64,000 nucleotides of DNA. It comes from an uncultured Pseudomonadales bacterium. GTDB lineage: Bacteria > Patescibacteriota > Microgenomatia > UBA1400 > UBA1396. Position 1 is the first letter of the stretch. Every line of letters starts with the position of its first letter. The position numbers were made by a program, and so were the translations under genes. The notes beneath the pieces were generated by a model that saw only the letters and a list, made by a program, of their open reading frames with translations, did not search any database and was not told the origin of the DNA. The stretch covers positions 123,880 through 187,879 of the forward strand of contig CAZRWP010000002.1 in assembly GCA_964603945.1 (NCBI GenBank), given 5' to 3'. Below are positions 7,975 through 61,078 of the stretch, one piece after another.

Positions 7975-8823
7975 ATGAGCAAAAAGGTAAAAACATCCGA
8001 AGCTAAGAATTATGAATCCAAAAAGTTAAGAAATGTTCCTGATGATGAAAATTCTATGGGCAAACCTTTCTTCAAAAGTCTTTATTCACTTTGGCTAATA
8101 TCTATTGTTATTTTTTTTGTATCTTTATTGATTGTGCAAACTGATAAACAAACAAATATTTGGTGGCAATTAATAGCACTTTCAGTAATAAGCGGCTTCT
8201 TATTTTTCATCGCATTAATAAGGCAACTTGATCGAAACTCTAGAAGTGAGAGTTGCTCACGCTTTAGGTATCTTTCTGTAGCTACTTTTATAGCCTTTTT
8301 TGTATTGCTCTTTAATTTTTCAGATGTGGCGGCAATGTTGGGATTTACAAACTCTAGCAACATTGAAAGCACAAGCCAAAATAAGCAAGTTGTCCCGTCA
8401 TCAAAACCATCTCCCAAGTCAACTTATAAGCCGATATCATCCACCCTTCCTAAGCCTGTGCCAAAAGTTTCGCAACCAGTTAATACAAATAGCAGTTCAT
8501 CAAGTCAAATTGACTGTACGGGACCTGATGGCAAGGTGTTTAAGACATCGCAAAAAGAATGTGATGACTTTAATAAGGCTTGGGGAAATGCACCACCTCC
8601 AGATCCGAATGAGGTCATTAAATGCGGTATCCATACTAATTGTGGAGGCGGATATAAAGAGATGAGAAGAGCTGATTGTGAAAAAATATTATGCTGCTCC
8701 TTGTCGAGTGGAAATATTATGACTTCAAAAAAAGATTGTAATGATAAACAAGAGCAAGAATGTATCGAAACTTCTATGGATTATGGTCTCTCCATAAGTG
8801 ATGCCATCGATGTGTGTGACTAG
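7975..8823 (+). CDS. secreted/membrane-anchored Cys-rich protein (paralog of 27259..27957)
   Basis: N-terminal TM segments, S/P-rich linker, then a Cys-rich domain. The shared module QIDCTGPDGKVFKTSQKECDDFNKAW matches QITCTGPDGKQFQTTQKVCDEFNAAW in 27259..27957. Confidence 0.5.
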   Translation: MSKKVKTSEAKNYESKKLRNVPDDENSMGKPFFKSLYSLWLISIVIFFVSLLIVQTDKQTNIWWQLIALSVISGFLFFIALIRQLDRNSRSESCSRFRYLSVATFIAFFVLLFNFSDVAAMLGFTNSSNIESTSQNKQVVPSSKPSPKSTYKPISSTLPKPVPKVSQPVNTNSSSSSQIDCTGPDGKVFKTSQKECDDFNKAWGNAPPPDPNEVIKCGIHTNCGGGYKEMRRADCEKILCCSLSSGNIMTSKKDCNDKQEQECIETSMDYGLSISDAIDVCD

Positions 8824-9362: not shown

Positions 9363-12300
9363 TTGTACCAAGAAAGTTTTGAAATTATCGATGATCAATT
9401 GGTTTTCCAATCAGAAAAAGAATTGCCAGGCTCTGATCTTGGCGCCATTCAATCACTTTCTGCTCCCATGATGATGACTTTGGCAGTGAGTAATGCAACT
9501 CCAAGTACAAACGATGCCAATAGAACTAACGGTTGGGCTCATGTGGACCAAGTCACACAAGGTGTTGGCAGTACAGAATTAGAGTTTATTAGTACAAGAA
9601 ATTTTTATAGTTGTTTTGAATATCGGACAGACGGTGATACGAGTCAAAAAATAAGTGACACAAACTTTAATGCAGAAATACTTGACGGTTTATATCCATA
9701 TCATTGTCAAATTAACAACTCCAGACCGAAAACCATAACCGCTAATGAGTATGTTGAGGTTCGAATGGTCTTTGGAGCGGAAAAAGATGAGCGCTTCGAT
9801 TGGACCCGTTTTGATGTGTATAAATTGGATGTACCCGAACAACTTGGTTACAACCTAAAAGATACAAATACTCCCCCAGGGCAAACTCCTCCTAACCTGA
9901 GTTGCAATAACAGCGTTACTAATATCAATGGTGCTTCTGTGGTTTGGACGGATGAAAATACCGATTCCAATATTAAGTATCAGAGACAGTATTCACTTAA
10001 TGGTGGCCAATCATGGTCAGGCAATGAAATCTATACCAGTAAATTTACAAACTTTAGACCTTTTGGTAATAGTGCTGGTATGGATATGAAAGTTAGTTCC
10101 AGAGTCCGTGCTTTCTATGACTTAAATACAGATGGAAAATTAAATAATGACGAACCTGCATCAGATTGGAGCAACGTCTGTGATATTACATTTGATGCAA
10201 CGACTCCAACTATTGAACTTACCAATCCTTCAAGCGGATTTGTAAATAATGTAGTTGATATTAGAGCTTCTGTTCAGGATGCTAACCCTCACCATTATTG
10301 GTTAGCTGCGTATAAGAAAAACGGGTCAGAAATATTCTCAAAAGTTCAAAATCATAGCGAGTCATTCTCTGATACTTCTATATATTCTTGGGATACAACT
10401 CTCGTAGAAGATGGCGAATACATAATTAAATTTGCTGAACGAGATGCTGCTGGAAATCGTACCTCTGACATTAGCGTTGAGGTTACAGTCGACAACCATG
10501 GTCCAGACGCACCAATAATTTCGTTCCCAGGAAATGAGCAATACTTCAAAGCTGCTCCCATTTTAAATCAATGGTCTTCAGTTACTGATCCTGCCGGTAT
10601 AAAAGAGTATCGAGTTGAATATGTCTATGATGATCTACACGATTTTTCCGATGCTCCATACCGCATTGTGACTGGCACTTCACGAAATCACAGTCCAGGC
10701 AATTCTGAACAGGGTGGTGTGACCATTCGTGTCCAAGCTTTTGACAATCTAGGAAACGAAGGTGCTTGGAGTGAGGCAGTTCACTATTATTATGATTCGG
10801 TAGCACCTGACGCACCAACACTAAAGAGTCCTGAAGATGGTTTTATTACCCAAGGTGTAAAGTTCGTCCAAACCTGGGAAGCAGTTGCTGGTGCAGTCAA
10901 GTATAACTATCGCAGCTGCCAAAACGATCCTACAACCGAGACCTGCCAGTTGAAATATAGTGATTCCTACACAAATCCAGTTAAAACCGTGAGTGCAGGT
11001 CAACCTGACAGTCACTTCTGGTGGCAAGTCCAGGCCATTGACGCGGCTGGAAATATTTCACCCTGGAGTGATGCATGGGAAATGACAATCGATAATACTG
11101 CGCCAGAAGGTACTATCGATTCAGTCAAGTACTCCAATGGCAAAGTGTCTGACAAATTCGTAACGAACTTTAACACTCCAGTGATTGTTGGAACTTTCCT
11201 TAGCGATGATGTTGAATCTGCCGTTCTAAGTGTCAATGGTCATGATTATTCAGTTAGCATTAATTCTTCTGACTGGGAAGCAACGATCACTGATGCCATT
11301 CCAGATGGGGATAATGAACTCACGCTGACCGTGACTGACAAAGCTGGCAATTCAAAGTCATTCGACAAAAACATCTTTATAGACACCAAAGCGCCGTCAG
11401 CTACGCATACATATTACAAAAATGGTGAGGCTGTTACTGATTCGATTGCCTACGCTAATAATATCTCTGAGCTAACTTTTACCGGCAATTATGAAGATCA
11501 AACACCTTCAGCCGGTTTATATTGGGATTCATTTGTAATCTTCCAGGCTCAAGATGATGGATCTTTCCGATTCGCTGCTAATGGCAAGAAATCATATTGT
11601 GGCTGGAGAAGCTCACCAAACTTGATCAACCTATCCGGATCAAGTTTCTCTCTTGCGACTCCTGCTCCGTTTTCGGACTGTGTCTCAAGTCTGGAAAATG
11701 GTGAGTATTATTTAGCCCACCAGATTTTCGACAATGCGACCAGAAAAGATATTCCTTCAATTAATCAATTTAGGGATGTTTTAGGGCTGCATTTTGTCAT
11801 CGACAACACCATCCCCACCAGCGCCATAACCGCTCCCATTACCTCGACTACAAATGAAACCTATATCACTAATGACTGGAACGGCTATCTCGCTGGCACA
11901 GCCGCTGATGTCGGTAGTCATGTGACTGAGGTTAAACTCTCAATTAAGCGCAATAATGGCGACTATTGGGATAAAGATAGCGCGAGCTGGATCTCCGATC
12001 CTGGCAATGAAGTTCTCTTCAACGCCGATGGCACGAATAACTGGACCTACACCCTTCCTAGTCACGACCCTGACACCTACACCGTTAGGTCGCACGCGGT
12101 GGATGCCGCCGGTAATCAGGAAAACACAGCCGAGTTGGTCATCATTTATGACCAGACCATTCCTGAAGTAAAGTTAACCATTAATCCAGATCAGGCGGAT
12201 GGACAAAACAATTGGTATGTGACTAAACCTACGGTTACTTTAGATCCTTCTGATGAGAATGGTATTAAATTAATCGAATACCAATGGGATAACACCTCGA

Positions 12301-13442
12301 ATTGGACTCAATACACTCAGCCAATTCAACCTCCAAGTGAAGGTTCTCATCTGCTGACTTATCGAGCCTTTGATCAGGCGAGTAACCCAAGCAAAGAAGG
12401 TGTTAGAACTATTCTCTACGACTCTACCGCACCTGGTCAGCCAGACATCAGCTTCAACCAGAACCCCACCAAGAAAAAAGAGGTGATGGTTATGTGGTCA
12501 GCCTCCCAGGATAACGTCGGCATTGTCCGCTACGATATCAGCTGGTCTGAGAAAGATGGCGACCGCTCATTTAGTAAATCCGTTGGCGGTGATGTCCTGG
12601 AAACCGAAATTGACGAACTGCGCGAAGGCAAGTGGACCGTTAAAGTCAAAGCTTATGATGACGCTGGTCACTCGACAGAATCAACCAGGACTCTGACCGT
12701 CGACACTTCTGCCCCACATGCTCCAGATTTAAAACTGGATAGCTATGTTGGTGGCACCGTTGAACTCAGCTGGGATAAAGTTGAGGATGGCGATGACTAT
12801 GTTGTGCTCTACGGCACCAGTTCTGGCGACTATCCTTTCGCCAAGCGGGTCGGTAATGTTGACTCCGTCACAATCAAAGATCTTAATGCCGGTCCCTACT
12901 ACTTTGTGGTCAAAGCTGAGGACAAGGCCAACAATGTTAGTAAAGCCTCTAATGAAGTCACCACTGCCCCAGATACGGCTGTTTTAGGCACGTCTGAGGT
13001 TGGCGGAGCTGATATTGCCTTAGTTCCGGCGGCTGGTTTTGCACCAACCGAGGAAGTGCTTGGTGACGATACCCAAGATGAAAAAGCTGGCAATATTTTG
13101 TCTGGCTCAGATGAATCAGAAACTCCAGGTGAAGTCTTGGGCGCGACGGACACCAACTCCTTTAACTGGTGGTGGTTGTCCTTGATCATCTACGTCATCA
13201 TGATGCTAATTACCTATGTCATGGCAGCGGAAAGCCGATCACTGCGCATTGTCGGTAACGTTATCGCTACCGCCATTGCCAGTTACTTGCTCTACCGCTG
13301 GCTGCCCCAGCCGCTAGTTTGGATTGGCGGATTGGTGGTCTTAAGCGCGATTATCGAAACATTGGTCTGGCTAAAATTTCCTGGCCAGGCAGTAATTAGC
13401 GTAACCAATAAGCCGACTGGCAGGTTCAAGCAAAATAGCTGA
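9363..13442 (+). CDS. giant surface protein, multi Ig/FN3-like beta-sandwich domains, C-terminal TM anchor (1359 aa as listed; frame open from 9258)
   Basis: Recurrent domain-boundary motifs about every 100 aa (VDNHGPDAP, YDSVAPDAP, IDNTAPEG, IDTKAPSA, IDNTIPTS, YDQTIPEV, YDSTAPGQP, VDTSAPHAP). C-terminal hydrophobic helices WWWLSLIIYVIMMLITYV.., VWIGGLVVLSAIIETLVWL. TTG is the first in-frame start, with no signal peptide of its own. Confidence 0.7.
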   Translation: MYQESFEIIDDQLVFQSEKELPGSDLGAIQSLSAPMMMTLAVSNATPSTNDANRTNGWAHVDQVTQGVGSTELEFISTRNFYSCFEYRTDGDTSQKISDTNFNAEILDGLYPYHCQINNSRPKTITANEYVEVRMVFGAEKDERFDWTRFDVYKLDVPEQLGYNLKDTNTPPGQTPPNLSCNNSVTNINGASVVWTDENTDSNIKYQRQYSLNGGQSWSGNEIYTSKFTNFRPFGNSAGMDMKVSSRVRAFYDLNTDGKLNNDEPASDWSNVCDITFDATTPTIELTNPSSGFVNNVVDIRASVQDANPHHYWLAAYKKNGSEIFSKVQNHSESFSDTSIYSWDTTLVEDGEYIIKFAERDAAGNRTSDISVEVTVDNHGPDAPIISFPGNEQYFKAAPILNQWSSVTDPAGIKEYRVEYVYDDLHDFSDAPYRIVTGTSRNHSPGNSEQGGVTIRVQAFDNLGNEGAWSEAVHYYYDSVAPDAPTLKSPEDGFITQGVKFVQTWEAVAGAVKYNYRSCQNDPTTETCQLKYSDSYTNPVKTVSAGQPDSHFWWQVQAIDAAGNISPWSDAWEMTIDNTAPEGTIDSVKYSNGKVSDKFVTNFNTPVIVGTFLSDDVESAVLSVNGHDYSVSINSSDWEATITDAIPDGDNELTLTVTDKAGNSKSFDKNIFIDTKAPSATHTYYKNGEAVTDSIAYANNISELTFTGNYEDQTPSAGLYWDSFVIFQAQDDGSFRFAANGKKSYCGWRSSPNLINLSGSSFSLATPAPFSDCVSSLENGEYYLAHQIFDNATRKDIPSINQFRDVLGLHFVIDNTIPTSAITAPITSTTNETYITNDWNGYLAGTAADVGSHVTEVKLSIKRNNGDYWDKDSASWISDPGNEVLFNADGTNNWTYTLPSHDPDTYTVRSHAVDAAGNQENTAELVIIYDQTIPEVKLTINPDQADGQNNWYVTKPTVTLDPSDENGIKLIEYQWDNTSNWTQYTQPIQPPSEGSHLLTYRAFDQASNPSKEGVRTILYDSTAPGQPDISFNQNPTKKKEVMVMWSASQDNVGIVRYDISWSEKDGDRSFSKSVGGDVLETEIDELREGKWTVKVKAYDDAGHSTESTRTLTVDTSAPHAPDLKLDSYVGGTVELSWDKVEDGDDYVVLYGTSSGDYPFAKRVGNVDSVTIKDLNAGPYYFVVKAEDKANNVSKASNEVTTAPDTAVLGTSEVGGADIALVPAAGFAPTEEVLGDDTQDEKAGNILSGSDESETPGEVLGATDTNSFNWWWLSLIIYVIMMLITYVMAAESRSLRIVGNVIATAIASYLLYRWLPQPLVWIGGLVVLSAIIETLVWLKFPGQAVISVTNKPTGRFKQNS

Positions 13443-14523: not shown

Positions 14524-17500
14524 ATGTTTGGTGTTGCCAGGGGTGTCATCTATCAAAAGACTGAATTCATGATTAGTAAATTAAACATTCTAAACCATAC
14601 AATTAATCGACTGCCTAAAATTGGTAAAGTTTTCTCGATAACGCTACTTGCCTTAACTTTAGGAGTCTTATTTTCAAGTTCAATTTCACAAGTAAAAGCC
14701 GAGCCATTAGTAGGTGAACTATCTTTTGACTCTACCGCTATAAATGTGACCGAAGGTGCGAATAACACCTATAGTATAGTCTTATTAAGCCAGCCAGTTA
14801 GTGATGTAGTTGTAACCTTAAGTCATGATGGCGAAATTTCGGTAGACAAAGACTCTGTGACCTTTACTGATTCTAATTGGGGAACGCCACAGATCATAAC
14901 GGTCACAGGTACTACTGATAATAAAGTTGAAGGGTCACACGATAGCACTATCACTCATTCTATTGCCACCGATACCGAAGTGGCCGAAGTCGTGGTTACA
15001 ATTGCAGATGCTACAGAAGCTGGTTATACGATACCAACCTCCAACTTTGAATTGGCCGAAAATAATCAAAGTGTCACTCGTGAAGTTGTATTGACCGCAC
15101 AACCAATTAATGACGTGGTATTTTCACTTACCTCTACCAATCCAGATAGGGTTATTGTAACGCCAGCAACTCTAACCTTTACAAATGCTAATTGGAGCAT
15201 CCAGCAAGAAATTTCTATTGCTTCTGTGGATGATTATATTCAGCAAACTTCTCCCGTAACAGCTGATATAAGTATTGGAATTGACGATGATAATAGTGAT
15301 CCACTTTGGGCGGATTTAACAGATAGTTCTTTTACCGTAACTCTCACCGATAACGATACCGCCGGCGTGACCGTTTCACCCACCTCCGTAAGTACCACTG
15401 AAGGTGGCGACACCGACGAGTACACAGTTAAACTGGACTCCCAGCCAACTGGCAACGTGGTAATTAACGTCATCCCAGACGGCCAAAGCTCCACCGATAA
15501 GTCAACGCTAACCTTTACCGCTGGCAATTGGGACTCCGACCAGACGGTTACGGTAACTGCGGTGGATGACACTTTAATTGAAGGCAACCACGCCTCCACC
15601 ATTACCCATGAAATTAACACCGCCTCTACCGATGACGCTCTTTATGACTCTTTAGACTCTCTAACGATTGTGACTAATAATATTTCAGATAACGACAATC
15701 CTGGCTTTTCTTTAAGCACGAAAAATTTGTCCGTAGAGGAAAATGGTGGCACCAATACTTTCTCCGTAGTTTTGTCCGCCCAGCCACAAGGCACCGTTAA
15801 CTTTGCTTTAGTTAGCAGTAGTACTGATGAGGCGACCGTTTCTCCGACCTCCATAACTTTTACTAACGCTAACTGGGATGAGGCGCAAGTTGTGACCGTG
15901 ACCGGCGTAGATGATGACCACCTCGGTAATGACACTGCCCAAATTAGCGTTAGCGTTGACAGTTCTGGATCTGACGCTAACTGGGACTCACTACCCACAG
16001 ACTCAGTTGATATTTTGCTCCTAAATAATGACGAGGCCGGCGTGACCGTTTCACCCACCTCCGTAAGTACCACTGAAGGTGGCGACACCGACGAGTACAC
16101 CTTGGTCTTAACTGCCCAACCCTCGTCGGAGGTAATAATTGATATCTCCCCAGACGACCAAAGCTTAGTAGATCCTAACCAAGTTACCTTTACTACTGGC
16201 AACTGGAACATAGCCCAAACCATTACCGTATCTGCAAATGATGACACGCTTCTGGAGCCGACTCACTCTAGTACTATTTCTCACAGTCTAAGTGGTGACA
16301 CTGACTTTAGTGAAGTTTCCATTAGTAGCGTTACTAACACCATTACAGACAATGACCAAGGTGCCATTGAAGTAGAAAGCACGTCTTTAGTTGTTGGTGA
16401 AAATGGTGGTGAAGGCTCGATTGCAGTTCGTCTAACTCAGCCTCCCACCGCTAGCGTGGTCGTCCAAGCGGTTTCTACTGACACTAGTGAGGCAACTGTT
16501 TCTCCTAGTGAACTCACCTTTACCACGGACAATTGGCAAGATTACCAGAACTTTTTAGTTGTGGGTGTAGATGACAATATTGACCGCAACGACAGCACCA
16601 CTATTTCCTTAAACATTGATGAAACCCGTTCTCCAGAAGAGTGGCAAGGCACGGACAGTGTCCAAGTAGAGATCTCTCTCACCGATAACGATACCGCCGG
16701 CGTGACCGTTTCACCCACCTCCGTAAGTACCACTGAAGGTGGCGACACCGACGAGTACACAGTTAAACTGGACTCCCAGCCAACTGGCAACGTGGTAATT
16801 AACGTCATCCCAGACGGCCAAAGCTCCACCGATAAGTCAACGCTAACCTTTACCGCTGGCAATTGGGACTCCGACCAGACGGTTACGGTAACTGCGGTGG
16901 ATGATGTAACGGTAGAAGGCACACATAGTAGTACTATCAATCACGAAATTAATACCAGCGACACTGAAGATTCTGTCTATTTAGAACTAGGTTCGTTATC
17001 TCAAGTAGCCAATAACATTACGGATAATGATAGTCCTGCTTACACTCTGTCAGATGAATCTACTTCAATTACTGAAGGGAGTTCTCAAGTTATAAGTATT
17101 AATTTGCAAACCCGCCCAACTTCAACTGATTCACCAATAAAACTAGAAATAAATTCTTCAGATACTAATGAAGCAAGTGTTGACCCCTCATTTGTTGAGT
17201 TTACCTATGACAATTGGAACACGCCAAAAAACTTTACGATTTATAGTATCGAAGACTACGTAGTACGTAGTGATACGGCTACTATTTCCATCTCACCAGC
17301 TGAGACTAATCCGACTAGCTGGAAAGGGGATCAGCTAGCTGATAAACAAATTAATGTCAGTTTTATTGACAATGACGTGCCTGCTTTTAGCGTTAGCCAG
17401 TTAGATGTGGGTATAGCTGAAGGAGATTCAGATACGGTTGAAGTTATGCTTGATGTAGCTCCGGAAAACCAAGTTGCATTGACTGTAGCTAGCAGTAATC

Positions 17501-18789
17501 CTTCATTAGCTACGGTATCACCGAACTCACTTATATTTACCAACGCTAATTGGGACACGCCACAAGTAGTTACCTTAGAGGCCGTAGAAAATGATGTTGT
17601 AGGAAATAGTACTTCGGAAATTTCTCTTTCCATTGACACTTCTAATTCTGATGCAGCCTGGCATGGATTAATGGTAGAAACTGTATCGCTCATGATTCAA
17701 GACAATGATTCTCCTCAAGTATTATTGTCTCCGACTGATATCGAACTTGAAGAAGGTAGTTCAGGCGCAGTCAGCTTGAGATTAGGTTCCCAACCCCAGA
17801 CAGACTCTGTTGTGGTAATTGAGCTAATTCCAAACACGACTGAGTTGGATTTAGGTAATGGATTTGCTTCCAATATGACAGTTAGTTTTGATAGCACCAA
17901 TTGGAATGTAAATCAACAAGTGCCAATTATGGTTCAGGATAACTCTTTAGTCGATGACAATCGGATGGCTGAAATAAGAGCCAATATAAGCGTTATTGAA
18001 ACTACTGATCCAGATTATCTTGACCTAGTCTGGGATGAAATTATTTATGTACAAATTCTTAATAATGATGATCCAGAAATTCCTGTGCCAGAAGAACCAA
18101 CGCCAGAAGAGCCAACACCGCCCAAGAAAAGCAGTAAAAAACCCAAGAGCGAGTCAGAAAACAGAAGCAAAGCTTGCACTAACAGCAGCCCAACCGGAAA
18201 GCCATATTTGTTTCAAATTAAGATGCAGGGATCTTCAGCAGAACTATTCTTTGCTCCTACCCAAAACACAACTGACTACTTAGTTATGTATAACGTTGTC
18301 AATAATGATCAACAACACTCAATGAAGTTTGCCCATAAAGATAATTCGGGAGTTGTGTCAACGACCATCAATGATCTGGCTACAAATACGCAGTATAGTT
18401 TTAGTGTGCGCTCATTCAATGAGTGCCAACCAGGTGAGTGGAGCAATGAAATGGTTGTCAAAACCAGTGCAAGCACCACGGCTACCCTATTTTATGCCGG
18501 TGGCGAATCCGAAGCGGCGGGCGGATCATCGGCGAATACTGACCTTGTCGGATCTGAACTTTCAACTGTGGATAATAATGAATCTGTATTACTTGAAGCT
18601 TCACCTGATGATTTTGTAGCCGATAAAGCAAATAACGACCCAACTAGCAATGATCGTGACGATGGTGAAAATGCGGACAATTCTCATCAACTTAGTGGAG
18701 CAACTAATTCAGTCGGCAATAATGAACAACCAAACAAATCTTGGTTAAGACGAGTTTGGGATACATTTACCAATATATTTTCCAGGTAA
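14524..18789 (+). CDS. giant secreted repeat protein (1421 aa): signal peptide, at least 10 tandem roughly 100-aa beta-sandwich (Calx-beta/cadherin-like) repeats, FN3-like domain, acidic low-complexity C-terminus
   Basis: Signal-like KIGKVFSITLLALTLGVLFSSSISQVKA (the true start may be the Met at about 14569). Repeat consensus ...VTVSPTS..T.EGG.T..Y.V.L..QP...V......TF...NW...Q.V.V.AVDD...EG.H..TI.H.... PEEPTPEEPTPPKK linker. Confidence 0.8.
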   Translation: MFGVARGVIYQKTEFMISKLNILNHTINRLPKIGKVFSITLLALTLGVLFSSSISQVKAEPLVGELSFDSTAINVTEGANNTYSIVLLSQPVSDVVVTLSHDGEISVDKDSVTFTDSNWGTPQIITVTGTTDNKVEGSHDSTITHSIATDTEVAEVVVTIADATEAGYTIPTSNFELAENNQSVTREVVLTAQPINDVVFSLTSTNPDRVIVTPATLTFTNANWSIQQEISIASVDDYIQQTSPVTADISIGIDDDNSDPLWADLTDSSFTVTLTDNDTAGVTVSPTSVSTTEGGDTDEYTVKLDSQPTGNVVINVIPDGQSSTDKSTLTFTAGNWDSDQTVTVTAVDDTLIEGNHASTITHEINTASTDDALYDSLDSLTIVTNNISDNDNPGFSLSTKNLSVEENGGTNTFSVVLSAQPQGTVNFALVSSSTDEATVSPTSITFTNANWDEAQVVTVTGVDDDHLGNDTAQISVSVDSSGSDANWDSLPTDSVDILLLNNDEAGVTVSPTSVSTTEGGDTDEYTLVLTAQPSSEVIIDISPDDQSLVDPNQVTFTTGNWNIAQTITVSANDDTLLEPTHSSTISHSLSGDTDFSEVSISSVTNTITDNDQGAIEVESTSLVVGENGGEGSIAVRLTQPPTASVVVQAVSTDTSEATVSPSELTFTTDNWQDYQNFLVVGVDDNIDRNDSTTISLNIDETRSPEEWQGTDSVQVEISLTDNDTAGVTVSPTSVSTTEGGDTDEYTVKLDSQPTGNVVINVIPDGQSSTDKSTLTFTAGNWDSDQTVTVTAVDDVTVEGTHSSTINHEINTSDTEDSVYLELGSLSQVANNITDNDSPAYTLSDESTSITEGSSQVISINLQTRPTSTDSPIKLEINSSDTNEASVDPSFVEFTYDNWNTPKNFTIYSIEDYVVRSDTATISISPAETNPTSWKGDQLADKQINVSFIDNDVPAFSVSQLDVGIAEGDSDTVEVMLDVAPENQVALTVASSNPSLATVSPNSLIFTNANWDTPQVVTLEAVENDVVGNSTSEISLSIDTSNSDAAWHGLMVETVSLMIQDNDSPQVLLSPTDIELEEGSSGAVSLRLGSQPQTDSVVVIELIPNTTELDLGNGFASNMTVSFDSTNWNVNQQVPIMVQDNSLVDDNRMAEIRANISVIETTDPDYLDLVWDEIIYVQILNNDDPEIPVPEEPTPEEPTPPKKSSKKPKSESENRSKACTNSSPTGKPYLFQIKMQGSSAELFFAPTQNTTDYLVMYNVVNNDQQHSMKFAHKDNSGVVSTTINDLATNTQYSFSVRSFNECQPGEWSNEMVVKTSASTTATLFYAGGESEAAGGSSANTDLVGSELSTVDNNESVLLEASPDDFVADKANNDPTSNDRDDGENADNSHQLSGATNSVGNNEQPNKSWLRRVWDTFTNIFSR
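15346..15579 (+). repeat. exact 234-nt intragenic direct repeat, copy 1 (copy 2 at 16681..16914; partial third copy 16036..16100)
   Basis: Base-by-base comparison of the two stretches shows 234/234 identity. The third copy shares the first 65 nt. Confidence 0.85.
16681..16914 (+). repeat. exact 234-nt intragenic direct repeat, copy 2
   Basis: Identical to 15346..15579. Confidence 0.85.
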
Positions 18790-25824: not shown

Positions 25825-26445
25825 TTAATATGAACAAAAATTATTCAAATCTCTTACTTCCTGGATATGTTCCGATCGAACTTCATCATTATTGCAATTG
25901 AGATTAATTAAGGCATTATAGATATTGTCTCGTTGTTCAAATGTGTAGATATACTGCTTAAATTTGAGCATGGTGTCTAATAGCTGCTTAATGTTGCCAG
26001 CCTGAGAAGGATCTGTTCCCACGATTTTGTTAGCATTGGGAAAAACGACATAAGGAATGATGGGGGATTTTAATTGTGATCTTAAAGCAAGTTCCAAAGC
26101 TTGAGTGTGGGCATAGTTCTGTCTCATTGGATTGTAAAAACTGTTTCGGTATTTATAGATAATCTGAACCCATTTATCTTGTTTAGAATTTCCATAGATC
26201 CATCCCTTATTAGCTTTTGTTTCAATACAAAAAATTCCATAATTAGAAACAACAACATGGTCTATTTGAGTGTATTTAGTCTTACCATGAGAAGGTATCA
26301 TTAGATTGTTTATGACCTTATAAACTGCATTTGGAAGTTTCAGCAGATGACTTGATACCTGTAGCTCGGCAATTTCTCCAATATAAGTAGGAGATCTTCT
26401 ATTTGTTAAGTTGGGTAGAGAAAAGAAAAATTCCAAAAATGACAT
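25825..26445 (-). CDS. NERD (nuclease-related domain) protein
   Basis: GE.AE..V...L..L....YKV.NN..IP..GKT.YTQIDHVVVSNYGIFCIETKANKGWIYG...QDKW.QI.YKY...F.NP..QN..H..AL matches the NERD consensus. Confidence 0.6.
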   Translation of the reverse strand: MSFLEFFFSLPNLTNRRSPTYIGEIAELQVSSHLLKLPNAVYKVINNLMIPSHGKTKYTQIDHVVVSNYGIFCIETKANKGWIYGNSKQDKWVQIIYKYRNSFYNPMRQNYAHTQALELALRSQLKSPIIPYVVFPNANKIVGTDPSQAGNIKQLLDTMLKFKQYIYTFEQRDNIYNALINLNCNNDEVRSEHIQEVRDLNNFCSY

Positions 26446-26501: not shown

Positions 26502-27230
26502 CTATTCCGGATAACATCCCCAATTTTCGTACCAATTGTACCCTTCTAAGTTTTGGGTACAGCAATCTACGTCGTTACCAGCTGAACACTCGGTTGGGCA
26601 TATTCCATCAGATTCAGCACTACAGCTGGCCATTGATTTGGGATAACATCCCCAGTTTTCAAACCAATGGTAATCGGAAAGTTTTTGGTCACAGCAATCA
26701 GCATCGTTACCGGCTGAACAATACCAGTGGCAAATTCCGTCTGCTTGAGCAGAGCATAATAGCTCCTTGGGATAGCACCCCCAATTTTCATACCATTTAT
26801 AGTCTGATCTGTTTGAGCAACAATCATTATCGTTTCCAGCGGTGCAGTTGCTAGGACAAATGCCATCACTAACAGCTGAGCACTTTTGTATAGGTGTTGG
26901 AATGACTACTGGCTTTGATGTTGGTTTGCGAGTCGGTTCTGAGACAGGAACAAGTGGTGCTGAGTATGGTTTTTGAGTAGTTGCGGGTTTTGGTTCCGGT
27001 GCGGCTGGTTTAGGTGCGGTTGGAGTATTTCCTCCCCCATGACAATGTCGTTCATTCCAAGGTACGCCCCATTCGTCACAATTTGTCCGACAGTAGTGAC
27101 AGCCATCCGAGGCCGTCCTGCCAGGATGGGCCAAAGTAGATGTTGAAAACGTAAACAAGAAAGCTAAAACTGCAAGATATATAAGGATAATCTTAGTCAC
27201 TATGGTTTTAGTATAACCTGAAATACCCAA
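26502..27230 (-). CDS. secreted Cys-rich protein with triplicated 7-Cys roughly 40-aa module
   Basis: Signal peptide. PT-rich linker. Three tandem repeats CSA.SDGICP.NC.AGND.DCC.......Y.WYENWGCYP[KE]. Confidence 0.6.
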   Translation of the reverse strand: MGISGYTKTIVTKIILIYLAVLAFLFTFSTSTLAHPGRTASDGCHYCRTNCDEWGVPWNERHCHGGGNTPTAPKPAAPEPKPATTQKPYSAPLVPVSEPTRKPTSKPVVIPTPIQKCSAVSDGICPSNCTAGNDNDCCSNRSDYKWYENWGCYPKELLCSAQADGICHWYCSAGNDADCCDQKLSDYHWFENWGCYPKSMASCSAESDGICPTECSAGNDVDCCTQNLEGYNWYENWGCYPE

Positions 27231-27258
27231 GTCACAAGGATTTGATGGAAAGATGGGG

Positions 27259-27957
27259 TTAATTTATTGGGTAGCGTTGCTCACAAATAGAAATTTCCTG
27301 GCTCAGATTTCTTTCAATAATTTTCATGGAAGTCTCATATGCGCTACTATCTAAGGCACCGAGACTTCTTAGCTTATTCCTAATAGCAAGACTTTCTTGT
27401 CTATAATCATCTCTTGCGTCTTGTATACATTTTGAATTTTCGTAAGTGTAATCTATTTGCTCTTGTATGTTTAATTCATTTGCTTCGTAAAGTTCTGCAA
27501 AGAATTGTTGACTCTCTAGGTCTCTTTTTTTACTTGACTCACAGTTTTGTGGAGAAAGCTTATAAGTACCATAACTCAGCTCACAATCAACTGTTTCGTA
27601 CTTTGGTGCAGTGAAGTTGTAATATGCGTCGTCTGGTTTTTTAGTTGGAGTGAAAGTTGCTACTGGTTTTTTCTCCCAAGCTGCATTAAATTCATCACAC
27701 ACTTTTTGTGTAGTCTGAAATTGTTTTCCGTCAGGTCCAGTACAAGTTATTTGGGATGAGGTATTTGCTTTGGGAGCTGGCGCCTGGGGTGTAGACTTAG
27801 CTGAGGGTTTTGGCGTGGATTTAAAATTACGATTGATTACTTTTTCAACAGCAGGGCTTGGTGAAGGCTGTGCTTGAGGTGAAGTATTATCTAGTCCACT
27901 AGTGATAATAATACTAGAAGCTATTGCGACAATGAATGTAATTATTAATCCAGGCAT
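27259..27957 (-). CDS. secreted protein, paralog of 7975..8823 (shared CTGPDGK..F.T.QK.CD.FN.AW module)
   Basis: N-terminal TM/signal, S/P/K-rich linker, shared module, C-terminal helical region. Confidence 0.5.
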   Translation of the reverse strand: MPGLIITFIVAIASSIIITSGLDNTSPQAQPSPSPAVEKVINRNFKSTPKPSAKSTPQAPAPKANTSSQITCTGPDGKQFQTTQKVCDEFNAAWEKKPVATFTPTKKPDDAYYNFTAPKYETVDCELSYGTYKLSPQNCESSKKRDLESQQFFAELYEANELNIQEQIDYTYENSKCIQDARDDYRQESLAIRNKLRSLGALDSSAYETSMKIIERNLSQEISICEQRYPIN

Positions 27958-38010: not shown

Positions 38011-39771
38011 TTATTGAGTAACGGTATTAGCTTGAGTGAAGAAATCTTGCGAGTGCTGTGTGAAGGCGGCCGGCCTGGCCCTGAGGTAGTCCTTTAACAG
38101 TTCTACTCGCCTCTCCCACTCTTCCACCGAAGCCACGCTTGGCACCGGCGCAGAGTAGCTACCCAGATGGCTGAGCGCTTCTTGATCTACTAATTCCGAT
38201 TGACCGTTCTGGCCGGCCGCCGATTCTTGATCCATTCCAGCCTGGCTGGCAAGATCCGCCGACTCACTGGCCTTTACTCCGCCCCAGCGTTCCACTTGAC
38301 GCGGCATTTCTGGTCTAATTTCTTCAGCCAAGCGGTCAACCGTAGCCGTCATATTATCGCCGCTCAAAGTAGTTTGAGTTAGCTCGGCCAGTCGCTCAGT
38401 CCACTGTTTTTGGAATGGCCGGTTAAAAAACAAGTTGCGGAATGGAAATTCATGATCCTCAAAATTAGTAAAAGGATTGCCATTGGCTGACTTGATCATT
38501 CTTTCGGTTGAGTCGTTACTGCCACCCATTGATACGTCTAGATCAAACAATAGCCAGCGCCAGCGGCCATCTAATTCCGGCACCATTTGGGATTCAACGG
38601 GCGCGGCAATTTCTGTCCGGTAACGCCAAGCCTTGGTGTTGTTATAAGGCCAGTCAATGTTGGCAAAAAAGAATTCAAAAAGCAGATAGTCTAGCAAATT
38701 ATTGATATCACTCAGGCTATTAACATGACTGTAACTTGCACAATGGGTACAAGCTCTGATATCAGATAAAAGACGGTTATAAAGTGCCGCCTCCCCTTCC
38801 ATTTGCTTGGTGTCGCCAACAGCCCGACCACGGTTCACGCCATTGTCTAAAGGTATATCAACTACCGCCAAGGCTTCCGGATCTACTCGATATTTTTCCT
38901 CAAAGTAAGTTTCGTCAAAGCGCTCGCGGACATAATAAAGTCCCCAGTACTCACCATTCAGATACAGGACGACTGGCCTGGCTGCTTGGGCGTCCAACGT
39001 AGAATCACTTTGTTCAACTAACTCCGCCGCCAAGCGATCACGCATAAAGGCGTTTTGGGCATCACCGCCACCATTTCTTAAAATTAATGAAGAATGTTGT
39101 CGGTTGCCCTCCTCGCCAAAAATTGGATAAGTAAGTTTTTCTTCTCGGCCATTTTCATCCTGAATGTAAATGCGAAATGATTTCTGAGCCATGCCACGCA
39201 TGGCATTTCCATGTAATCTCAGGCCAATGGTATGCTCAAAACCAATCTTCTGATCTGGTTCATACCAACGCATCATGGCCGGCCGTTCCCACTTATCGCC
39301 ACTTTGACGATGATTGTTGTTGTTGCCTTCGATGTAAATACCAATCTCTGGATCCCAGAGTGAAGCCGGCGGCAAATTAATCGAAATAATCGGTAGAGTG
39401 TGTTCAGTACCGATAAAGAAATCCTGACGCTGGGGTTTGGTCAGTACTTGCCCATTTTGATCGGTAATCGTAGTTTGCAACACCACAGTTTTATTAATCT
39501 CAACTGGCTCTCTATAAATTAGTGAATCCGATCCAGGTGACGACCCATCAAGAGTGTAGCGAATATCACCATTAATCGGTGAGCTCAAACTAACGGAAAT
39601 TGGCTCCTTAAAAAATTGACCGCGCGGTGAGATCGCCACCGGCTCAGACAGTAAATTTCTAAGCAAAAAATTGGACTGCCAAAACGCTAAAACCACGAGT
39701 AATAAAACTCCAAAAACCAGCCCAAACAGCCGACTATTTTGAGAAATTGGACTAACACGATAAAGCTGCAT
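38011..39771 (-). CDS. CotH kinase family protein (N-terminal TM anchor)
   Basis: CotH-like blocks LILRNGGGD, RD.LAAEL, LYLNGEYWGLYYVRERFDETYFEEKY. N-terminal TM. Confidence 0.65.
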   Translation of the reverse strand: MQLYRVSPISQNSRLFGLVFGVLLLVVLAFWQSNFLLRNLLSEPVAISPRGQFFKEPISVSLSSPINGDIRYTLDGSSPGSDSLIYREPVEINKTVVLQTTITDQNGQVLTKPQRQDFFIGTEHTLPIISINLPPASLWDPEIGIYIEGNNNNHRQSGDKWERPAMMRWYEPDQKIGFEHTIGLRLHGNAMRGMAQKSFRIYIQDENGREEKLTYPIFGEEGNRQHSSLILRNGGGDAQNAFMRDRLAAELVEQSDSTLDAQAARPVVLYLNGEYWGLYYVRERFDETYFEEKYRVDPEALAVVDIPLDNGVNRGRAVGDTKQMEGEAALYNRLLSDIRACTHCASYSHVNSLSDINNLLDYLLFEFFFANIDWPYNNTKAWRYRTEIAAPVESQMVPELDGRWRWLLFDLDVSMGGSNDSTERMIKSANGNPFTNFEDHEFPFRNLFFNRPFQKQWTERLAELTQTTLSGDNMTATVDRLAEEIRPEMPRQVERWGGVKASESADLASQAGMDQESAAGQNGQSELVDQEALSHLGSYSAPVPSVASVEEWERRVELLKDYLRARPAAFTQHSQDFFTQANTVTQ

Positions 39772-60085: not shown

Positions 60086-61078
60086 TTATCCCAATCCTGG
60101 CAGATTTAATATTGTTACGCCAATATATTCTAGGATGATGATTGAAAAGATGATGAAAAGTAGTCCACTAATAGCCGCTGTTATTAACTCTTTAGCTTGT
60201 TTAACTTTACCTGATTCACCACGTGAGGTGGTGAAGATAAAGGAAGAGGCCAAAATTGATAGGAATGAAGCCATACCAGCGACCCCTAATAATATCTTGA
60301 TTAAACTGGCGGCAAAGACGTTAAATTTTCCATCTTGAGCTACCTGAATACACCCAACCGCGGTAAAGATATACTCGCCTTCTATTCCTTTATTAACACA
60401 AGCTTGACAAGCTCCTCTTTGAGTTGAAGGGTCATTAATATCTCCAGGAACTTGATTGCAGTAGTCGAATGGAATTCCCGCTGTTGATTGTTTTACTTCG
60501 CAAGCATAAGAACTTTCACAGCACCATCGACTGTCGTAAGATGATGTTTCTACATCTTGAGTACAAAAGGATCCTCCAGCTTTGGCGCAAAACTCTCGTG
60601 CTGATGTATCAGTTGGAAATTCAGTGTGAGATAAATCTAAGCATCCTTCAGTAACTCGACATACGCCATCTGACGCACAAGAACCTCTTAAGCATTCGGA
60701 GTCATTCTTGCACGCGCCTCCTAGGTCAGATAAGCGTCCGGCAGAGAAGCACTCGCAAACTGATAGACCACCGCCAGATACTGTCTTTTTTCCTTCAAAA
60801 CACCAAGCGGCTGACGGGAAATCACCAAGCTCTGAATCATAGCAACAATATTGTCCGTAGCCACCACAGTTGGGAAAAGCTGATCTATCACTAGGATCTT
60901 TGCAGATTCCACTAAAGCCTGAGCCAAGGTCATTTCTCTCACAAAATAATCCAGGAGCACATCCGCTATCTAGTTTGGTGTAATCACAGGATTCTCCAGC
61001 TGCTATTTGAGCTTTGACACTAGATTGGAAGAAAAAGAAATAAAATAATACTAATAATAGTAAAGTAATCCTTTTCAC
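60086..61078 (-). CDS. TrbC/VirB2-like pilin with a large N-terminal Cys-rich ectodomain
   Basis: Signal peptide. About 230-aa domain with more than 30 Cys. C-terminal LLGVAGMASFLSILASSFIFTTSRGESGKVKQAKELITAAISGLLFIIFSIIILEYIG resembles the VirB2/TrbC pilin core. Confidence 0.55.
   Translation of the reverse strand: MKRITLLLLVLFYFFFFQSSVKAQIAAGESCDYTKLDSGCAPGLFCERNDLGSGFSGICKDPSDRSAFPNCGGYGQYCCYDSELGDFPSAAWCFEGKKTVSGGGLSVCECFSAGRLSDLGGACKNDSECLRGSCASDGVCRVTEGCLDLSHTEFPTDTSAREFCAKAGGSFCTQDVETSSYDSRWCCESSYACEVKQSTAGIPFDYCNQVPGDINDPSTQRGACQACVNKGIEGEYIFTAVGCIQVAQDGKFNVFAASLIKILLGVAGMASFLSILASSFIFTTSRGESGKVKQAKELITAAISGLLFIIFSIIILEYIGVTILNLPGLG

Follow-up and report, generated by a model that had tools for sequence, protein, structure and literature searches.

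Small disulfide-rich repeats are a familiar kind of extracellular building block. The LDL-receptor class A (LDLa), hevein/CBM18 and Excalibur domains are all about 40 aa long, extracellular and found in tandem, LDLa with six cysteines. Among wall-binding repeats and carbohydrate-binding modules, a signal peptide is followed by a head or functional domain, a PT-rich linker and tandem small modules at the C terminus. A further described element, YHYH_alt, is a short His-rich motif placed right after the signal peptide; it starts with H-x-G-x-T-x-x-x-G-x-H, ends with an H-x-H pair and is frequent on secreted thermonuclease-family proteins. To our knowledge, host recognition and attachment by the ultrasmall cells of Patescibacteria and DPANN archaea are largely unknown beyond type IV pili.

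We analyzed a gene whose predicted product recalls each of these systems. It lies in what we call the window, that is, the whole stretch of 64,000 nucleotides under analysis. As the first-pass annotation had claimed, an open reading frame spans 26502..27230; it was found on the minus strand, where it is the maximal one (242 aa, upstream limit TTG 27230), and it encodes the protein sequence given there. The true start is probably GTG 27200 and not TTG 27230, since homologues begin there, the first residue of the 94%-identical homologue P0001 being the equivalent of GTG 27200, and since a gene called independently on a Logan contig encodes the identical 232-aa protein (Table 1). A promoter-like sequence, TTGTGA-16-TATACT, is located at 27237..27210 on the minus strand, within the longer version of the reading frame and ending 10 nt before GTG 27200; together with this start it would mean a nearly leaderless transcript. 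Sites of this type are not more numerous in the region than expected from shuffled sequence.

Table 1. Features of the target gene and its immediate neighbors, in window coordinates
Feature	Position	Strand	Remarks
Most likely CDS (232 aa + stop)	26502..27200	minus	GTG start at 27200; supported by homologue starts and independent gene call
Sec-type signal peptide, 24 aa, VTKIILIYLAVLAFLFTFSTSTLA	27129..27200	minus	Predicted cleavage between TLA and HPG
Head of mature protein, 30 aa, HPGRTASDGCHYCRTNCDEWGVPWNERHCH	27039..27128	minus	4 Cys + 4 His; YHYH_alt resemblance; highest constraint
Pro/Thr/Lys-rich disordered spacer, 52 aa	26883..27038	minus	pLDDT < 50 for residues 70-93
Six-Cys module 1, CSAVSDGICPSNCTAGNDNDCCSNRSDYKWYENWGCYP	26769..26882	minus	Family profile match
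Six-Cys module 2, CSAQADGICHWYCSAGNDADCCDQKLSDYHWFENWGCYP	26640..26756	minus	Family profile match
Six-Cys module 3, CSAESDGICPTECSAGNDVDCCTQNLEGYNWYENWGCYPE	26505..26624	minus	Family profile match; protein ends 2 residues past the module
NERD-domain gene, directly downstream of target	25825..26445	minus	Weak PglW-like PADLOC match
Unrelated exported 232-aa protein, 56 nt upstream of target	27259..27957	minus	No significant Pfam match

The gene is real and under strong purifying selection, with pN/pS values of 0.15/0.67 against the orthologue in locus L001 and 0.18/0.70 against the one in locus L015. When the parts of the protein were compared separately with orthologues in related contigs, pN was lowest in the head (0.04-0.07), higher in the repeats (0.11-0.16) and highest in the spacer (0.25-0.31). 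The first-pass annotation had assumed an origin in Patescibacteria. The RpoD encoded in the window shows this to be correct, its best named relatives being those of the Microgenomates group, Woesebacteria, Pacebacteria and other Patescibacteria (71-75% identity). Several MAG records that hold close homologues (L005-L008 and L010) are titled "uncultured Pseudomonadales bacterium", while RpoD and synteny place the lineage in Patescibacteria; these titles are probably placeholders or mislabels.

A signal peptide had been proposed for the protein, and the homologues bear this out. The AF2 full-length model contains a hydrophobic helix at residues 2-17. Furthermore, all 104 homologues that share the HPGRT...RHCH head have an alanine at position -1 of the cleavage site, their residue at -3 is V, A, I, T or S, hence small or aliphatic, and the first histidine of the head stands at median position 25. 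The predicted helix and the residues at -1 and -3 of the homologues thus give what is expected of a Sec substrate, an N-terminal signal peptide with a type I cleavage site. In the mature protein, the head (AF2 pLDDT of 59-77) is followed by a spacer that contains 14 prolines and 7 threonines among 49 residues and varies in length among homologues.

The C-terminal part consists of three tandem copies of about 40 aa. This repetition, already noticed in the first-pass annotation, is real and far beyond chance: each copy matches the family profile with a domain E-value of about 1e-21, and any two copies share 25-27 of 38 residues. Two details had to be corrected. Each module, 38-40 aa long, contains six cysteines rather than seven, in the pattern C-x7-C-x3-C-x7-CC-x13/14-C, and the WYENWGCYP motif that had been ascribed to all copies is present in copies 1 and 3 but reads WFENWGCYP in copy 2. 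All three copies fit the expression C-x7-C-x3-C-x2-G-[NS]-D-x-D-C-C-x(8-10)-W-x(4)-G-C-Y within an exported protein, and the modules account for 18 of its 22 cysteines, the head for the other 4. When 72 single modules of about 33 close homologues were aligned, C3, C11, C15, G18, D20, D22, C23, C24, W32, G37 and C38 proved invariant, and S4, D8 and Y39 nearly so. The triplication appears to be old, since the copies are too diverged at the DNA level for Tandem Repeats Finder, which reported nothing. Moreover, among homologues with three modules each copy is orthologous to its counterpart at the same position (in 9/10, 10/10 and 10/10 cases for modules 1, 2 and 3), indicating that each copy is individually maintained.

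We then compared the module with described domains. The earlier statement that it belongs to no recognizable family stands: no match was obtained in Pfam-A, NCBIfam, the PDB or the Foldseek searches. For the whole protein, no Pfam-A family was found at an E-value of 1 or below and none reached its gathering threshold, and the 72 single modules gave scattered chance matches only, the best with an E-value of 0.0073 in 1 of 72. NCBIfam contained no match to the module, a PADLOC scan of the protein and of single modules returned nothing, and sequence and profile searches of the PDB gave no real match. From the 72-module alignment, AF2 built a single-module model with a mean pLDDT of 93.5, in which the N-terminal half is irregular and is followed by a short helix around the CC pair (21-25) and a beta-hairpin formed by 30-33 and 37-40. 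When the whole protein was modeled, each of the three modules scored above 90 and the spacer came out disordered. Foldseek, which had been suggested as a check, found nothing below E = 0.7 among the solved and viral structures of the PDB and BFVD.

A characterized Cys-rich family was also sought by direct comparison. With hhalign, the probability was 1.0% against hevein/CBM18, a chitin-binding motif of eight cysteines, and 0.5% against LDLa, which has an acidic SDE cluster, both weak tests with a single sequence as template, and 0.9% against the Excalibur-like segment of homologue P0115; PF05901 itself was not matched in Pfam. The cysteine spacing of the module differs from that of LDLa, and its loop, G-N-D-x-D-C-C, differs from the Excalibur loop DxDxDGxxCE. 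No characterized Cys-rich family was thus recovered in Pfam-A, NCBIfam, the PDB or these three alignments, and no description of the six-Cys module was found in the literature. What remains is a set of likenesses: the same length, extracellular location and tandem arrangement as LDLa, hevein/CBM18 and Excalibur, six cysteines as in LDLa, an acidic loop that recalls both LDLa and the Ca2+-binding domain of Excalibur, and an aromatic patch that recalls hevein. By analogy, the module may work like these domains, as a ligand- or Ca2+-binding bead. We conclude that the module represents a small domain family that has not been described before and has no detectable relative in the solved structures; it is possibly a new small disulfide-rich fold and a candidate new Pfam family.

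The module is not confined to this protein. The first-pass annotation had proposed to look for it elsewhere in Patescibacteria, and when 1.84 billion representatives were searched exhaustively with the profile, only 84 proteins were recovered at E<=1e-3, from Patescibacteria and DPANN archaea. The named archaeal members belong to Woesearchaeota, Nanoarchaeia and Nanoarchaeota, and neither viral contigs nor a phage collection contained a copy; as far as seen, the module is restricted to Patescibacteria and DPANN. The wider consensus, common to 170 module instances, is CSxxxDGxCPxxCxAGSDxDCCxxxGxxWxxGxGCY, and all six cysteines are kept in 166 of the 170 full instances. Residues 13-54 of P0142 form the only instance that lacks two of them, C2 and C5 being missing together, a weak hint in the sequence that C2 may pair with C5. 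In the wider family, module columns 10 and 31 repeatedly carry additional cysteines.

The close family has a single architecture (signal peptide, Cys/His head, PT-rich spacer and two or three modules). In the wider family, the module is found almost always in exported proteins and usually at their extreme C terminus: it ends within 6 residues of the protein end in 52 of 79 proteins, and an N-terminal hydrophobic signal or anchor is present in 61 of 79, many of the rest being fragments. Small proteins, in which a membrane anchor and a coiled-coil stalk carry one module at the end, make up about half of the wider family. The larger carriers include a 1498-aa S8 subtilase that combines FG-GAP and PEGA domains with terminal modules, five or six of them depending on the count, and proteins with fn3, CARDB or Kre9_KNH Ig-like domains; Pfam matches in the large relatives fall only on non-module domains. 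One carrier starts with a methylation domain of the prepilin type (TIGR02532, 17.2 bits, cutoff 16.3; it bears the same name in JGI), and the N terminus of a Woesearchaeota carrier (MKGQTSTEYLII...) reads like an archaeal pilin signal. The order of parts, with tandem small modules behind a PT-rich linker, and the co-occurrence with subtilase, fn3, CARDB and Ig-like domains resemble what is known from wall-binding repeats and carbohydrate-binding modules, but this is an architectural analogy only, as no homology was detected.

As for the head, a search with the whole protein gave 497 matches, most of which share nothing but this part, placed immediately behind the signal peptide, and about 100 of the best 120 carry the HPGRT...RHCH form, often with SNase. 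In these head-only proteins, the head and a PT spacer lead to one of three elements: a staphylococcal-nuclease domain (PF00565), a segment resembling Excalibur (PF05901, below threshold) or a hydrophobic tail at the C terminus. The last arrangement, a head on a PT-rich stalk with such a tail, was seen in 21 of the best matches. With hundreds of Patescibacteria proteins, the head is by far the commoner element of the two. The HPGRT...RHCH form (P0031-P0120) is widespread on secreted proteins of Patescibacteria and always adjoins the signal-peptide cleavage site.

Against the NCBIfam profile NF033223 (YHYH_alt), the head scored 16.5 bits (E 0.0078, residues 33-64 of the 242-aa reading frame), below the cutoff of 30 bits; related heads from Patescibacteria relatives scored 15.9-19.1 bits, likewise all below it. 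The alignment covers profile positions 2-25 with an insert and sets the R-H-C-H terminus of the head against Y-H-Y-H. The head shares with YHYH_alt the features introduced above, but it differs in an insert of about 15 aa with extra cysteines (YCRTNCDxWGVPWNE) and in ending with RHCH instead of YHYH. The match recurs consistently among the relatives but stays below the cutoff, and the resemblance is weak; the head is not a certified YHYH_alt member. The YHYH described in jumbo phages (PMC7824862), a histidine-triad/aspartate domain fused to phage tail proteins, appears, judged by its description, to be the larger Pfam YHYH and not the 25-aa YHYH_alt. A copper site of the histidine-brace type, which uses an N-terminal His1, was set aside for the head, the alternative heads starting with Arg, Lys or Gln.

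Three different heads share one slot among the close homologues: HPGRT...RHCH, RSGCCSHHGGVCGCGCCDG... and KSGCCSGHDGVNC..., the latter two without a match in NCBIfam. Alternative Cys-rich heads are found in P0007, P0008, P0013, P0017, P0019, P0022, P0023, P0025, P0028-P0030 and P0042. The presence of three heads in one slot indicates that the module array is the constant part of these proteins and the head an exchangeable one. As for its role, the head could be a metal- or disulfide-stabilized docking knob.

The neighborhood of the gene names no partner. In the window it is surrounded by genes for a NERD protein, an IMPase, a hydrolase and an unrelated exported protein, and no conserved partner gene was found across 10 related loci; the upstream exported gene is kept in one close relative only (L015, 54% identity, same position). 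The synteny of DnaG and RpoD with L001 simply reflects common descent. A helicase of the SLFN-g3 type adjoins the homologue or lies near it in three loci (L003, 4354..6551; L006, 2427..4626; L001, 10950..12536), accompanied by a MazG-like gene in two of them (L003 and L006), which suggests that the gene sits in a variable, defense-island-like region rather than in an operon.

Several other exported or surface-type proteins were observed in the window. The upstream neighbor and the product of 7975..8823 (plus strand), both exported or membrane anchored, have the motif CTGPDGKxFxTxQKxCDxFNxAW in common, behind a spacer rich in Pro and Ser; the latter matches PF14293 (YWFCY) below threshold (21.3 bits, cutoff 24.4) and has no significant Pfam match. 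A second, unrelated Cys-rich exported protein is encoded at 60086..61078 (minus strand; 330 aa, signal peptide, 24 Cys, hydrophobic C-terminal helices, no Pfam match). Surface-type proteins with Big_13/fn3 domains (9363..13442, plus strand, 1359 aa) and with fn3_6 domains (14524..18789, plus strand, 1421 aa) are also present, as is a CotH-kinase protein with a chitobiase C-terminal domain (38011..39771, minus strand). Overall, the proteome of the window is poor in cysteine, most reading frames having 0-3; the few exceptions mostly begin with a hydrophobic segment for export or anchoring, and even counts, 22 and 24, are found in the two Cys-richest reading frames.

Taken together, we propose, with about even confidence for and against, that the gene encodes an exported, disulfide-stabilized, multivalent and non-enzymatic binding protein of the adhesin-like kind, either held at the surface or secreted. 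Sec would export it from a Patescibacteria (Microgenomates-like) cell, and cleavage between TLA and HPG would leave a mature protein of about 208 aa: the Cys4/His4 head, a flexible Pro/Thr-rich spacer and three autonomous modules of 38-40 aa, arranged like beads on a string. Each module, according to its confident model, has an irregular N-terminal half with a conserved acidic and glycine-containing loop (D8, G18, N/S19, D20, D22), then the helix that includes the CC pair, and finally an aromatic beta-hairpin, Y-x-W-Y-E-N-W-G-C-Y. Three disulfides would hold it together. We infer them from cysteines that are invariant and even in number, in a window otherwise poor in cysteine, and from the enrichment of CPR genomes in MdbA-like oxidoreductase and VKOR (bioRxiv 10.1101/335083). 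The aromatic hairpin would bind the ligand, for which glycans and envelope polymers, either those of a host or the cell's own, are candidates, possibly assisted by Ca2+ at the acidic loop, where D8, [NS]19, D20 and D22 form a possible cation site. Multivalent surface attachment is the most likely role, since the family typically sits at the distal C terminus of surface enzymes, pilin-like proteins and membrane-anchored stalks, with partner domains of the surface-adhesion type. As no membrane or wall anchor is evident in the mature protein itself, it may be released rather than displayed.

The same C-terminal position allows another interpretation, as tandem repeats at the end of secreted enzymes can equally be anchors to the own envelope, which, like the unconserved gene neighborhood, counts against the reading just given. 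The six-Cys array would then hold the protein, and the proteases and other enzymes of its relatives, on the wall or S-layer of the producer, and the head would be the functional part. This is how known wall-binding repeats are placed, behind subtilase, other catalytic or Ig-like domains, and in other proteins the head is itself displayed, at the end of the PT-rich stalks with a hydrophobic tail described above. We nevertheless regard this retention as unlikely, because about half of the wider family is already anchored at the N terminus with the module at the distal tip of the stalk, where a second anchor would be needless, and because the pilin-like carriers point outward. It is also conceivable that the module binds nothing and merely serves as a protease-resistant structural spacer or stalk element. 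Tandem, compact, disulfide-rich beads are used as rigid spacers in many extracellular proteins; here, the predominantly terminal and not internal position of the module, the frequency of single-copy tips and the position-specific conserved residues kept by each of the three copies make such a role distinctly improbable.

Handling of Ca2+, Zn2+ or Cu outside the cell, which the head, the acidic loops or both would sequester or deliver with the cysteines as ligands, is quite improbable in our opinion. The four cysteines and four histidines within 30 residues of the head, its resemblance to YHYH_alt and its fusion to Ca2+-dependent SNase and Excalibur-like domains in relatives are what would be expected, as are the invariant D20 and D22 and near-invariant D8 of the module. 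The modules, however, have no conserved histidine, their six cysteines, so widely conserved, even in number and in an exported protein, follow the pattern of structural disulfides, and the alternative heads (RSGCCSHHGG..., KSGCCSGHDG...) differ in their sets of ligands. The first-pass annotation had suggested a binding module of toxin, bacteriocin or adhesin-like nature, of which we retain the adhesin-like part. A small, secreted, Cys-rich product whose fold has no neighbor in the PDB could be a toxin, a bacteriocin or the precursor of an antimicrobial peptide, but this is very improbable: the window and the 10 related loci contain no conserved adjacent immunity, ABC-transporter, protease or modification genes, there are no processing sites between the modules, and the module is embedded in surface proteins of 500-1500 aa and in pilins, and PADLOC gave no match and the phage and viral collections contained no copy.

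We therefore favor the adhesin-like binding protein. On present evidence its module is one more uncharacterized surface domain, and the family, although itself undescribed, is not a new kind of system. Being compact, confidently foldable and restricted to these ultrasmall lineages, and forming the tip of anchored surface proteins and of pilin-like ones, the module may nonetheless represent a concrete, expressible candidate for a recognition element of ultrasmall episymbionts. A bolder possibility, which we put forward as speculative and doubtful, is that a structurally unprecedented module has been exchanged between Patescibacteria and DPANN archaea and acts as a lectin-like, possibly Ca2+-dependent tip for host recognition, with the heads docking adaptors and nucleases to the surface of the symbiont. 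If this were true, a lectin-like tip on pili, stalks and secreted adaptors would be a shared tool of the ultrasmall episymbiont lifestyle.
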